In this document: one piece after another, positions 44,780 to 47,784 of the stretch
How positions within the stretch are numbered: the stretch's first letter is position 1
Layout of the letters: every line of letters starts with the position of its first letter
Origin: an uncultured Actinomycetota bacterium
GTDB taxonomy: Bacteria; Actinomycetota; Actinomycetes; Mycobacteriales; SCTD01
Length of the DNA: 64,000 bases
Assembly: GCA_963781675.1 (NCBI GenBank)
Contig: CAWAGF010000001.1
Coordinates: 764,280-828,279, forward strand
Reading direction: 5' to 3'
Translations under genes and position numbers: made by a program
The notes under the pieces: generated by a model
The model's input: only the letters and a program-made list of their open reading frames with translations
Told to the model about the DNA's origin: nothing
Databases searched by the model: none

Positions 44780-45853
44780 GTGAGCCTCTCCCTCGGCATC
44801 GTCGGCCTGCCCAACGTCGGCAAGAGCACGCTGTTCAACGCGCTGACCAAGAACGACGTGCTGGCGGCCAACTACCCGTTCGCGACGATCGAGCCGAACG
44901 TCGGCGTGGTCGGGGTGCCGGACGCCCGGCTCCCGCGGCTCGCGGAGCTGTTCAAGAGCGAGAAGACGATCCCGGCGACCGTGGACTTCGTGGACATCGC
45001 GGGCATCGTCAAGGGCGCCAGCGAGGGCGAGGGGCTGGGCAACAAGTTCCTGGCGAACATCCGCGACAGCGACGCGATCTGCCAGGTCATCCGGGTGTTC
45101 AAGGACGACAACGTCGTGCACGTCGACGGGCGGGTCTCGCCCAAGGACGACATGGACACCATCAACACCGAGCTGATCCTGGCCGACCTGCAGACGGTCG
45201 AGAAGGCGATCCCGCGCCTGGAGAAGGAGGCGCGGATCAAGAAGGACGTGCTGCCCCAGCTCGAGGCGGTGCGGGAGGCCGAGAAGGTGCTCAACGACGG
45301 GCGCACCGTCTTCGCCGCCGGCCTGGACCGCGGCCCGCTGCGCGAGCTCCACCTGCTCACCGCCAAGCCCTTCCTCTACGTCTTCAACCTCGACGAGGAC
45401 GAGCTGACCGACGCCGCCCTGCGCGCCGAGCTGGCCGCCCTCGTCGCCCCGGCCGAGGCCGTCTTCCTGGACGCCAAGGTCGAGATGGAGCTGATCGAGA
45501 TGGGGGAGGAGGACGCCCTCGAGCTGCTCCAGTCGATGGGGCAGGAGGAGAGCGGCCTGCACCAGCTCGCCCGGATCGGCTTCGACACCCTCGGGCTGCA
45601 GACCTACCTGACGGCCGGGCCCAAGGAGGCGCGCGCCTGGACGATCAAGAAGGGCGCGACCGCCCCCGAGGCGGCGGGCGTGATCCACACCGACTTCCAG
45701 CGCGGCTTCATCAAGGCCGAGGTCATCGGGTTCGAGGACCTCGTCGAGCTCGGCTCGATCCCTGCGGCGCGGGCCGCCGGCAAGGCGCGCATGGAGGGCA
45801 AGGACTACGTCATGCAGGACGGCGACGTCGTGGAGTTCCGCTTCAACGTGTAG
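44780..45853 (+). CDS. ychF: redox-regulated ATPase YchF
   Basis: 357-aa ORF with GIVGLPNVGKST (G1), DIAGIVKGAS, and a C-terminal TGS-like end DGDVVEFRFNV. Confidence 0.95.
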   Translation: MSLSLGIVGLPNVGKSTLFNALTKNDVLAANYPFATIEPNVGVVGVPDARLPRLAELFKSEKTIPATVDFVDIAGIVKGASEGEGLGNKFLANIRDSDAICQVIRVFKDDNVVHVDGRVSPKDDMDTINTELILADLQTVEKAIPRLEKEARIKKDVLPQLEAVREAEKVLNDGRTVFAAGLDRGPLRELHLLTAKPFLYVFNLDEDELTDAALRAELAALVAPAEAVFLDAKVEMELIEMGEEDALELLQSMGQEESGLHQLARIGFDTLGLQTYLTAGPKEARAWTIKKGATAPEAAGVIHTDFQRGFIKAEVIGFEDLVELGSIPAARAAGKARMEGKDYVMQDGDVVEFRFNV

Positions 45854-45855
45854 GC
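45815..45855 (+). repeat. copy 1 of a thrice-repeated sequence (authentic 3' end of ychF plus 2 nt)
   Basis: cag gac ggc gac gtc gtg gag ttc cgc ttc aac gtg tag gc. Compare with 47004-47042 and 47759-47784. Confidence 0.7.
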
Positions 45856-45941
45856 ATCAGGTGGCAAGGCGCTTGCCGGACCGGGCAGGTCACCAGGCGC
45901 GACGGGCAGCTACACCGCAACCCCAGCCGTGTCCGCGCGTC

Positions 45942-46811
45942 TCAAGCGCGACGGCGGGCCGACAGGAACGACCAGGCCAGCCGGCCTCCGTCGATGCCGT
46001 CCTCGGCCAGAGTGGGCCAACGGTGGCCCATGCCGTCCGCGGCGAGGACCGCCACCGCGCCGCCGGTGCTGCAGCCGCGATAGGTCTGGACGGTGTAGAG
46101 ACGGCTTGGCCGCGCAGTTGTAGCGGATGTGCAGCGCGACCGCTTGGCGATGGTCGCGGCAGCTGTAGGCACTGCGGTCAGTGAGGTGCCTAGGAACGTG
46201 CTGTAGTGGATCCCGCGGAAGGGAACGGCCCCGTCCGCCGTGCCGTGGATGAACATCGCGGCCAGCGGTCGTCCGCTTGGACACGACGACTGGAGCGTTC
46301 CGGCGACGGACACCGCCGCAGCGAAGACGTCGGGGCGTTCGCACAGGGCGCGCAGAGCCATCATGGCCCCGTTAGAGAAGCCCGACAGGTAGACGCGCTC
46401 CATGTCGATGGGGCGGAGCAGTGAGACGGTCTGAACGATGCGAACCAGCAGTCCAACGTCGTCCACGTTCGTCGCTGAACTCCTGCCGCAGCAGGTTCCG
46501 GCGTTCCAGCTGCCGTTCAGCCCGTACGGATAGACAACGGCAACGTCCTCCGTGTCCGCAACAGCATCGAAGCCGCTCGCTGCCTCCGTCGTCTGCGGAT
46601 CCGAATAGAGCCCGTGCATCGCGATCAACAGCGGGACAGGTTCGGCCGCGGGCACGCCCGGCGAGACGTACAGCTGGAAGTCACGCATCTCCCCGGCATA
46701 GCGGGTCACCAGCCGGACGTTGGAGCCCTCGGCCGGCACTGGACCGGCGGAGGCGGGAAGCGACAGCGCAATCAGCCCAGCAAGCGACAGCACGGAAACA
46801 AGACGGCGCAT
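45942..46811 (-). CDS. secreted esterase, PHB-depolymerase (LpqC-like) family
   Basis: ATG at 46811 with a signal peptide (LSLAGLIALSLPASA). PLLIAMHG is present, and the nucleophile elbow is GFSNGA. The GC content is visibly lower than the flanks; one 60-nt line hand-counted at 38 G+C. Confidence 0.7.
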   Translation of the reverse strand: MRRLVSVLSLAGLIALSLPASAGPVPAEGSNVRLVTRYAGEMRDFQLYVSPGVPAAEPVPLLIAMHGLYSDPQTTEAASGFDAVADTEDVAVVYPYGLNGSWNAGTCCGRSSATNVDDVGLLVRIVQTVSLLRPIDMERVYLSGFSNGAMMALRALCERPDVFAAAVSVAGTLQSSCPSGRPLAAMFIHGTADGAVPFRGIHYSTFLGTSLTAVPTAAATIAKRSRCTSATTARPSRLYTVQTYRGCSTGGAVAVLAADGMGHRWPTLAEDGIDGGRLAWSFLSARRRA

Positions 46812-47003
46812 CGGTTCCCCCCCGATAGGCAAGCGAACCGGCAACGTCCCGGCTGCGAGACACTGTTGGCGCAAGATCCATTGTGACATACCGGCACACA
46901 GGCCGCGCACCCGCACCGGCAGTCAGCCCTCGCGCCACATGCAGCCGCTCCACACCCCCCGAGACGCCGCCGACAGGCCGGCCGTCAAGGTGTTCGCTGC
47001 TGA

Positions 47004-47042
47004 CAGAACGGTAACGCCGTCGAGTTCCGCTTCGACTTTTGA
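47004..47042 (+). repeat. copy 2: diverged relic of a ychF 3' end (encodes QNGNAVEFRFDF-stop)
   Basis: 29 of 39 nt match 45815-45853 in the same codon register, with a perfect 12-nt core gagttccgcttc. It ends in TGA and is not attached to any ychF body. Confidence 0.6.
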
Positions 47043-47207
47043 CTGAGTCACCCGAGGTCTTCCCGGAGCAGGAGCACCCCAGCGAGGCTGGAGGACGGCG
47101 TGGTCCTGTTCCGCGTGGGCTCCTTCGGGACGACGATGGAGTGGACCGCGCAGGAGGCACGCGACGTCGGCCTGGCGCTGCAGGAGCTGGCGGAGCGTGC
47201 CGACGCC

Positions 47208-47233
47208 TAGACTGGTACCACTTCCGGTACTAG
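47208..47233 (+). promoter_or_regulatory. candidate YefM-YoeB operator (two GTAC cores 12 bp apart)
   Basis: CTAGACTGGTACCACTTCCGGTACTAG lies 10-35 nt upstream of the yefM ATG. The GTAC cores are at 47215-47218 and 47227-47230. Confidence 0.35.
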
Positions 47234-47242
47234 CATGAGGAC

Positions 47243-47485
47243 ATGGCCATCACCGCGAGCGAGGCGCGCAAGAACCTCTTCCCGCTGCTCGAGCAGGTGA
47301 ACGACGACCGCACGCCGATCGAGATCACCTCGAAGAAGGGCAACGCGGTGCTGATCGGTCAGGACGAGTACGACGCACTGGTCGAGACGGCGCATCTGCT
47401 GCGCGCCCCCGCGAACGCACGCCGGCTCCTCGAGAGCCTGGACCAGGCGCGCCGCGGCGAGCGCACGGAGCACGACCTGCCGTGA
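47243..47485 (+). CDS. yefM: Phd/YefM family antitoxin
   Basis: 80-aa ORF: ITASEARKNLFPLLEQVNDDRTPIEITSKKGNAVLIGQDEYDALVETAHLL. It overlaps the toxin gene by 4 nt. Confidence 0.9.
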   Translation: MAITASEARKNLFPLLEQVNDDRTPIEITSKKGNAVLIGQDEYDALVETAHLLRAPANARRLLESLDQARRGERTEHDLP

Positions 47486-47736
47486 GGCTGGTCTTCACCC
47501 CGAACGGGTGGCAGGACCACCAGCACTGGCAGGCGGCCGACAGGCAGGTCCTGCGCCGCGTGAACCGGTTGCTCGACGTCTGCCTCGTCGACCCGTTCGA
47601 CGGCATCGGCAAACCTGAGCAGCTGCGGCACGCACTCGCCGGCGCGTGGTCGCGGCGCATCACCGAGGAGCACCGACTCGTCTACCTGGTTGACGGCGAC
47701 GACCTCGTGGTCCTGCAGGTGCGGTACCACTACTGA
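47482..47736 (+). CDS. yoeB: Txe/YoeB family toxin (mRNA interferase)
   Basis: 84-aa ORF: W.DHQHW...DPFDGIGKPEQLRHALAGAWSRRITEEHRLVY...VLQVRYHY. Confidence 0.9.
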   Translation: MRLVFTPNGWQDHQHWQAADRQVLRRVNRLLDVCLVDPFDGIGKPEQLRHALAGAWSRRITEEHRLVYLVDGDDLVVLQVRYHY

Positions 47737-47758
47737 CGCCTCGTCGGCGCCGCCTGCG

Positions 47759-47784
47759 GTGGAGTTCCGCGTCAACGTGCAGGC
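47759..47784 (+). repeat. copy 3 of the ychF 3'-end sequence
   Basis: gtggagttccgcGtcaacgtgCaggc matches 45830-45855 at 24 of 26 nt. It lies 23 nt after the yoeB stop. Confidence 0.7.

Follow-up and report, generated by a model that had tools for sequence, protein, structure and literature searches.

Tandem Copies of the ychF 3′ End Around Two Small Integrase-Less Islets in an Uncultured Actinobacterium: Probable Traces of Serial Site-Specific Insertion

The ychF Locus

The 64,000-nucleotide stretch analyzed here (the window; contig CAWAGF010000001.1, positions 764,280 to 828,279, from an uncultured actinobacterium) carries an intact ychF GTPase gene at 44780..45853 on the forward (+) strand, with Pfam matches to YchF-GTPase_C (2.5e-38) and MMR_HSR1. 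The gene is followed by two small segments, termed islets, that lie between copies of its own 3′ end. Islet 1 (45856..47003) holds one esterase gene as its sole cargo, and islet 2 holds the remnant of a small open reading frame (ORF) together with a yefM-yoeB toxin-antitoxin pair. ychF is the proposed target gene of both insertions: serial site-specific insertion at its 3′ end would have left islets that lack an integrase and resemble cis-mobilizable elements (CIMEs), a reading to which we assign a probability of roughly 0.8. The nearest homologue of the window ychF in the genome collection shares 88% identity with it, and the gene as it stands after insertion is full length with a canonical C-terminus.

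Copy 1 (45815..45855, +) is the working 3′ end of ychF; it comprises the final 13 codons of the gene, read as QDGDVVEFRFNV followed by the stop codon, plus 2 nt. Copy 2 (47004..47042, +) reads QNGNAVEFRFDF followed by a stop codon in frame, and copy 3 (47759..47784, +) has its stop codon mutated to CAG. A first-pass annotation made from the sequence alone had claimed that the last 26 nt of ychF recur at copy 3, with a more diverged, in-register relic at copy 2, and both claims were borne out. The core of copy 1 (45830-45855, GTGGAGTTCCGCTTCAACGTGTAGGC) and copy 3 (47759-47784, GTGGAGTTCCGCGTCAACGTGCAGGC) are identical at 24 of 26 bases; when this 26-mer was searched with up to 3 mismatches, these two matches alone were returned from the window, and none from 100 shuffled sequences. 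Copy 2 matches 45815-45853 at 29 of 39 bases, including the exact 12-mer GAGTTCCGCTTC, and its part left of the core also resembles ychF in direct orientation (13/18). A nhmmer profile built from 78 actinobacterial ychF ends found the three copies alone in the window (E 2e-15, 9e-5, and 5e-4 for copies 1 to 3), the runner-up having an E-value of 0.48. All three copies share one orientation and lie in ychF or downstream of it.

Empty Sites and the Order of Insertion

Relatives of the locus were drawn from metagenome contigs in the 90%-identity clusters of the window ychF and yefM. Three of them (L097, L098, and L100) have 84-88% DNA identity to the window, and window positions 47004-47782 align to them at 86%, with the first 39 nt corresponding to their real ychF 3′ end. 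Past the ychF end, each has the small ORF, yefM, yoeB, and the relic, as in the window. Aligned with L097 and L098, copy 2 falls in register with their real ychF ends, and the homology carries on downstream. Thus, because copy 2 is the real end of ychF in these relatives, the esterase islet and one repeat unit constitute an insertion of about 1.19 kb confined to the window lineage. The possibility that relatives would show the same gene order without repeat copies, raised with the original proposal, does not hold; L097, L098, and L100 show an empty esterase site. A further contig, L094, is collinear with window positions 36819-45853 at about 85% DNA identity and then jumps to 47206-47779; its order is ychF, yefM, yoeB, and, 22 nt past the yoeB stop, the relic GTCGAGTTCCGGTTCAACGTGTGA, with no esterase. 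Altogether, islet 1 is missing in L094, L097, L098, L100, and L101.

Islet 2 is older. Relics orthologous to copy 3 are found in L094 and in L097-L100, and islet 2 with its relic is common to six relatives. At fourfold-degenerate sites, the window and L094 have diverged by 0.36 in ychF, 0.33 in yefM, and 0.375 in yoeB; since the values for islet 2 match that of ychF, islet 2 and its relic have been inherited along with ychF in this clade and predate islet 1. In six related genomes the homology ends at the end of the relic, and the DNA that follows is different in each. L097 carries three tail copies that bound a yefM-yoeB islet and a MazF-like islet, and L098, a member of the window's own clade, carries the toxin-antitoxin islet and the relic followed by an integrase-bearing element, the integrase lying 28 nt beyond the relic. 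Maintenance of the relics by selection or gene conversion was considered on account of two positions that co-vary with the ychF tail of the same genome; this idea was dropped, as 6 of 24 relic positions differ between the window and L094, a neutral level next to the fourfold value of 0.36.

Accordingly, copy 1 is an attL-like junction with islet 1, and copy 3 is the oldest relic, attR-like for islet 2 (attL and attR being the left and right attachment junctions). Copy 2 is the former 3′ end of ychF, now displaced; it resembles an attR with respect to islet 1 and an attL with respect to islet 2. That the three copies might match by chance, or belong to a repeat family that is dispersed and has nothing to do with ychF, deserves practically no weight. 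The bare 12-mer, searched with one mismatch, did give at least 3 hits in 2 of 100 shuffles; this reading is nonetheless refuted by the 26-mer, which no shuffle matched, by the profile, which found three sites only, and by the orthology of copy 2 to real ychF ends. Moreover, in the survey described below, every additional tail copy lies downstream of ychF and on its strand.

Cargo of the Islets

The esterase gene of islet 1 (45942..46811, −) encodes a secreted protein of the polyhydroxybutyrate (PHB) depolymerase or LpqC type (Pfam Esterase_PHB, 4.3e-9; 289 aa). The ORF as called spans 45942-46916, and the true start is probably at 46811, which gives the 289-aa product with a signal peptide. 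The description of this segment as a lower-GC tract with an LpqC-like esterase proved accurate: its GC content is 0.683 against a window mean of 0.734, among the lowest 3.5% of 1150-nt windows, and the GC at third codon positions (GC3) of the esterase is 0.80 against 0.93-1.0 in every neighboring gene. A composition unlike that of the host thus holds for islet 1. The closest homologues of the esterase share 82%, 73%, and 68% identity, and the homologues are annotated as PHB depolymerases. For annotation, the esterase would count as foreign DNA acquired recently; copies 2 and 3 would be listed as attachment-site relics rather than gene fragments of unknown origin.

Islet 2 opens with the remnant of a 60-aa ORF (47039..47211, +) that has no Pfam match. 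Described at first as a coding-like fragment before yefM-yoeB, it is a frameshifted copy of an ORF that is intact in L098 (707-889) and L097 (5785-5967), where it precedes yefM. In the window about 11 nt have been lost and the ORF is split over two frames; it is also frameshifted in L100, and it is deleted in L094 and L101. In relatives its start lies on the ychF stop codon, in an ATGA or GTGA overlap. The yefM antitoxin gene (47243..47485, +; Pfam PhdYeFM_antitox, 1.9e-18) and the yoeB toxin gene (47482..47736, +; Pfam YoeB_toxin, 1.6e-34) overlap by 4 nt, a layout with the antitoxin upstream of an overlapping toxin, as predicted for a YefM-YoeB type II toxin-antitoxin system. The yoeB stop lies 22 nt ahead of copy 3, and the GC3 of the toxin-antitoxin islet (0.93) is near host values.

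Copy 3 is followed by a stem-loop (47775..47827, +) with a 12-bp perfect inner stem pairing 47787-47798 with 47804-47815. Its folding energy is −31.4 kcal/mol (z −4.47), and none of 200 shuffles was as good; it is probably a terminator. Hairpins had been claimed after both copy 1 and copy 3. The second stands, and the first is no better than shuffled sequence (z 0.12). An Rfam search of 45500-48300, and of the sequence around ychF in the Streptomyces locus L055, gave no match; hence, the repeats and the conserved sequence after ychF do not belong to a known RNA family. Beyond copy 3, a lone 157-aa gene (47972-48445, −) has thousands of homologues annotated as 'phage tail protein'; L094 has no such gene here, and L101 has a copy of 74% identity 2.6 kb from yoeB. 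Very large ORFs follow the array both in the window (48719-53170, +; 1483 aa, with a weak metalloprotease match) and in L094 (10040-17074; 3628 aa, with haemolysin-type calcium-binding repeats), and the two have no DNA homology to each other.

Recombinase Genes Beside the Same Sequence

When phage records were searched with 81 nt around the ychF stop, a match was found in an intergenic gap of the Streptomyces satellite phage MulchRoom (L093, OQ784832) at 7338-7377. The segment (7338-7380), ATGCAGGACGGGGATGTGGTGGAGTTCCGCTTCAACGTGTGA (ATGCAGGAC...AACGTGTGA), encodes MQDGDVVEFRFNV followed by a stop, that is, the last 13 codons of ychF plus its stop, and it lies about 70 nt upstream of the start of a tyrosine integrase gene. 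This putative phage attachment site (attP) is 92.5% identical to copy 1 of the window over 40 nt. The published description of MulchRoom leaves its attachment site and ychF unmentioned (PMC10690885). Among IMG/VR contigs, L092 is a 95% relative of MulchRoom, and L081 and L084 carry a 59%-identical integrase that adjoins a ychF tail. Two others, L086 and L091, start inside ychF and run directly into MulchRoom-like DNA; they are integrated relatives of MulchRoom at ychF. These observations point to a candidate for the chromosomal site at which the recently described satellite phages of Streptomyces integrate.

The repeat of islet 1 extends over about 39 nt, from a CAG codon to the end of the stop, and its left edge is within 3 nt of that of the 42-nt identity segment of MulchRoom. 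Given this length and edge, together with the direct orientation of the left part, a tyrosine integrase with a long identity segment fits best; the inserter of islet 1 would thus have been of the tyrosine type rather than an element with a serine-recombinase attP.

A second group of enzymes is found beside the same sequence. In L082, L083, L085, L088, and L090, only the last 23-26 nt of ychF are present, beginning at GTGGAG or no more than 3 nt from it, and a large serine recombinase gene has its start codon 27-50 nt away. These recombinases have Resolvase and Recombinase domains and share 40-57% mutual identity; in a search of the family, the core was located 30-80 nt before the start codon in 7 of the 10 members with upstream sequence. 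In locus L110, a perfect 10-bp inverted repeat (CTGATGTTAC ... GTAACATCAG) is centered on the GT of GTCGAG, and the altered ychF tail of L001 (VVEFRF followed by QATSGQQK and a stop) matches the right arm of this repeat, CAAGTAACATCAGG. From this match, L110 appears attP-like and L001 the corresponding attL-like junction. Scoring of dyad symmetry in the serine-recombinase sites was not decisive, with a clear inverted repeat in L110 only. As a separate observation, the ychF C-terminus is replaced right after ...VEFRF in L001 (11048-11092; QATSGQQK and stop) and in L095 (9051-9092; GGASTSKG and stop), and these altered tails may be attL junctions that change the protein.

The left boundary of the relic at the toxin-antitoxin islet would be compatible with either a tyrosine or a large serine recombinase. 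It is possible, though doubtful, that a large serine recombinase inserted islet 2 with crossover at the GT just before GGAGTTCC, in which case copy 3 would join a phage-derived left arm to the original ychF tail. The identity of copy 3 to ychF begins exactly at GTGGAG, as in L082, L083, L085, and L088 (in L090, it extends to the left by another 3 nt), the bases immediately preceding it (ctgcg, acgcg, acgtg) are similar to the arms of serine sites, and the L110 inverted repeat is centered on the same GT. However, the alignment of the relatives' relics extends 5-6 nt further left, and a serine-recombinase remnant is absent from the locus, besides the indecisive dyad scores. In addition, an attP like that of L110 would alter the ychF tail, as in L001, whereas the tail in the window is canonical.

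A third family consists of tyrosine integrases of 360-390 aa, convergent to ychF, whose genes lie 28-118 nt past ychF or a relic in L002, L039, L065, and L098; in the prophage contig L087, an integrase of this family is about 0.9 kb away. In contig L090 (1386-4007), a serine recombinase, the ychF core, and a tyrosine integrase follow one another within 2.7 kb, which looks like a tandem of two different elements at one attachment site. In several actinobacterial orders, unrelated recombinases show convergence on one 25-40 nt stretch of a conserved GTPase gene. A short conserved chromosomal site of this kind, near well-defined integrases, could serve the engineering of actinomycete strains.

A short motif connects islet 1 with these loci. 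The 8-mer GCAGGTCA is present at 45885..45892 (+), 31 nt past the ychF stop. Of 88 loci, 27 have it 14-40 nt downstream of this stop, where 0.004 occurrences per locus would be expected. The loci that bear it include L002, in which a tyrosine integrase follows the same tract, and L003, which is cut short; in L098 a one-mismatch variant, GCAGTTCA, comes after the relic. The motif may be an arm-type or flanking recombinase site, a role that would tie the left end of islet 1 to tyrosine-integrase loci such as L002. In L055 (11090-11170) and about 25 other Streptomyces loci, a conserved tract after the ychF stop consists of an inverted repeat (CTGACCTG N9 CAGGTCAG; in L012 and L077, TGACCTGC N6 GCAGGTCA) and then a GC-rich hairpin. 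This tract may function as a core site for a recombinase or as a terminator.

The Site in Other Actinobacteria

A survey of 80 ychF loci from the genome collection showed that the arrangement is recurrent. Extra tail copies, confined to the downstream side and the same strand, are present in L027 (+6.3 kb), L041 (+0.75 kb), L043 (+5.5 kb), and L055 (+1.2 kb), and more decayed relics lie past yoeB in L031, L032, L038, and L049. A yefM-yoeB pair or a lone yoeB (the latter in L022, where it is reversed, and in L038) follows directly after ychF in 12 of the 80 loci; in L041 only 9 nt separate the yoeB stop from the relic. A second two-gene operon with a toxin-antitoxin-like layout follows ychF in L023, L043, L048, and L055. 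Its genes, as at L055:11275-11954, encode overlapping products of 94 and 137 aa without Pfam matches, and related copies or fragments occur in L018, L027, L052, and L076. Assignment of this cassette to VapBC was dropped for lack of a Pfam match, and it is toxin-antitoxin-like by size and layout only. Between Streptomyces species (L048 and L023), the cassette is 94% identical and ychF 86%, an excess of conservation that hints at horizontal exchange. A VapB/PIN pair adjoins the relic in L043. Short tandem duplications of the ychF stop region were also seen, with CAACGTGTAAGCG twice in L004 (1810-1850) and CGTCTGA twice in L007 (11065-11090); these may be recombination scars.

In total, about one quarter of the 80 loci have a toxin-antitoxin or toxin-antitoxin-like pair beside ychF, and use of the site by mobile elements would supply a mechanistic reason for this association. 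The first-pass annotation had placed such a pair directly after the ychF homologue of Mycobacterium tuberculosis. There, ychF is Rv1112 (PMC6985430) and vapC32 is Rv1114 (PMC5175351); this placement fits these locus numbers, and by the numbering alone the pair is probably beside ychF.

These arrays bear on two further explanations. Illegitimate recombination or break repair might have happened to duplicate 26-39 nt of the tail with no recombinase involved, and the lack of an integrase in the window and the divergence of copy 2, which fits plain decay of a duplicated host segment, agree with this. It is nevertheless very improbable: in several genera, independent insertions that differ in cargo have duplicated the same tail, each time in the same orientation and with the same boundaries, and three recombinase families carry the exact sequence beside their genes.

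Alternatively, the islets could be live mini-cassettes, with the ychF tail acting as a capture platform. Short units, each made up of cargo and one attachment site, would be excised as circles and put back by integrases that satellites or prophages provide in trans, much as with integron cassettes or CIMEs still in use. In favor of this, the islets are tightly packed and free of integrase debris (22 nt between yoeB and copy 3; 9 nt in L041), and varied small cargos are bounded by attachment-site copies, namely yefM-yoeB, the MazF-like gene, VapB/PIN, the two-gene operon, and the esterase. The conservation of the L055-type cassette, the GCAGGTCA-like motifs found on both sides of the core in several cassettes, and the end of homology among the six relatives exactly at the relic all point the same way. 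Nonetheless, we regard this explanation as unlikely. The yefM-yoeB islet diverges along with ychF both in the window clade and between Kitasatospora and Streptomyces, which indicates vertical descent; none of the cassettes was seen as a circle or at another place in a genome; and the relics decay at about the neutral rate, as the comparison of the window with L094 showed. A broader proposal, likewise improbable at present, is that the ychF tail is a docking platform shared by at least three unrelated recombinase families, on which minimal integrase-less cassettes, mostly toxin-antitoxin pairs, are stacked, shuffled, and passed on in trans. If true, this platform would be a functional analogue of an integron on the 3′ end of a housekeeping gene, and it could explain the toxin-antitoxin genes beside ychF from Streptomyces to M. 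tuberculosis (vapBC32, Rv1112).

Proposed Mechanism

Serial site-specific insertion accounts for the locus as follows. Actinobacterial mobile elements would use the 3′ end of ychF as the chromosomal attachment site (attB) of their site-specific recombinases, and the attP of such an element would carry a copy of the ychF tail. Integration would rebuild ychF at the near junction and push the old tail to the far junction. The rebuilt tail would again be a usable site, so that a later element would land beside ychF and move the earlier one outward. The toxin-antitoxin islet would have arrived first, when the window lineage and its known relatives had not yet separated, and the esterase islet next, between ychF and the toxin-antitoxin islet and in the window lineage only. 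The esterase insertion would have turned the then-current tail into copy 2 and brought in the present tail, copy 1. Both islets would be recombinase-less remnants or mini-elements that have kept both attachment junctions.

Insertion into the 3′ end of the gene with regeneration of that end, as first proposed, is supported by the empty site, by the integrase-bearing elements with the same attachment sequence, and by the tandem arrays at other loci. From these comparisons of sequence, we infer that recombinases made the two insertions; their class, the position of crossover, and any present mobility of the islets are likewise matters of inference.

Several observations weigh against this account. 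As the first-pass annotation had noted, there is no integrase: none was found in the 64-kb window by tblastn or by comparing six-frame ORFs with three integrase-family profiles (best E 0.12). Neither was an intact element found that combines this esterase or this toxin-antitoxin pair with an integrase. The closest esterase homologues elsewhere share the coding region alone, in unrelated contexts that are not beside ychF and lack attachment-like flanks, and no match came from a metagenome scan with the core and the stretch to the left of copy 2. Copy 2 departs from the canonical tail at 10 of 39 positions, which decay and a chimeric junction explain equally well, so that it is not in itself proof of a crossover. 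For the toxin-antitoxin islet, no fully empty site was seen; the DNA past copy 3 differs in every relative, and the islet is missing only in L095 and L096, whose downstream DNA is non-syntenic. Finally, given how compact the islets are, a large element could have decayed in place only through tidy deletions; arrival as minimal units is thus a live alternative to such decay.

Comparison With Known Systems

The mechanism, tandem accretion, is known, and the target site seems new to the literature searched, in which no description of a ychF-tail target or of toxin-antitoxin clustering there was found. In pneumococci, a prophage is located between dnaN and ychF, at a 14-26 bp site in the ychF promoter region (PMC6375853, PMC8637289). 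This is likewise a mobile element adjoining ychF; it was rejected as a precedent, as it lies on the promoter side rather than at the 3′ end and its host is a firmicute.

The closest parallel is provided by the CIMEs of Streptococcus thermophilus, found with ICESt1 and ICESt3 at the fda 3′ end, which have lost their integration and transfer genes and kept attL and attR (PMC5704250). By definition, CIMEs arise through decay of an ICE or IME and move together with a functional element integrated next to them; in L098, the toxin-antitoxin islet lies beside an integrase-bearing element. The reference list of the same review also cites site-specific accretion of Streptomyces pathogenicity islands. 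Like CIMEs, the window islets are integrase-less, are bounded by attL- and attR-like sites, and lie one after another where the 3′ end of a protein gene has been regenerated, with newer elements integrating into the attachment site of a resident one. Unlike CIMEs, they involve another target gene, phylum, and set of recombinases, measure only 0.7-1.2 kb with one to three genes, and contain no debris of conjugation or integration genes; they are termed CIME-like here.

MulchRoom resembles the locus in having the last 13 ychF codons and the stop beside a tyrosine integrase, with a left boundary within 3 nt of that of copy 2. It differs in its GC content of about 52% and in encoding a capsid and a terminase; a tblastx comparison with the window returned nothing, and the attachment stretches alone match.

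Prophages that depend on large serine recombinases also use protein genes, as with phiC31, Bxb1 in groEL1, and phiRv1 in REP13E12; in these classic cases attP and attB have few bases in common, and the target is disrupted. The ychF-associated serine recombinases are similar in that the recombinase gene lies directly beside the attachment site, with an inverted repeat around the core in L110. Unlike the classic prophages, they carry or rebuild 15-24 nt of the ychF tail.

Toxin-antitoxin modules are known as stabilizers of integrated elements and as integron cassettes. At ychF, a type II pair is the sole surviving cargo of the older insertion, and several toxin-antitoxin families gather at this one site. 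Unlike integron cassette arrays, the array in the window has neither IntI nor attC, and the repeats that bound its islets are ychF tails rather than the imperfect palindromes of attC.

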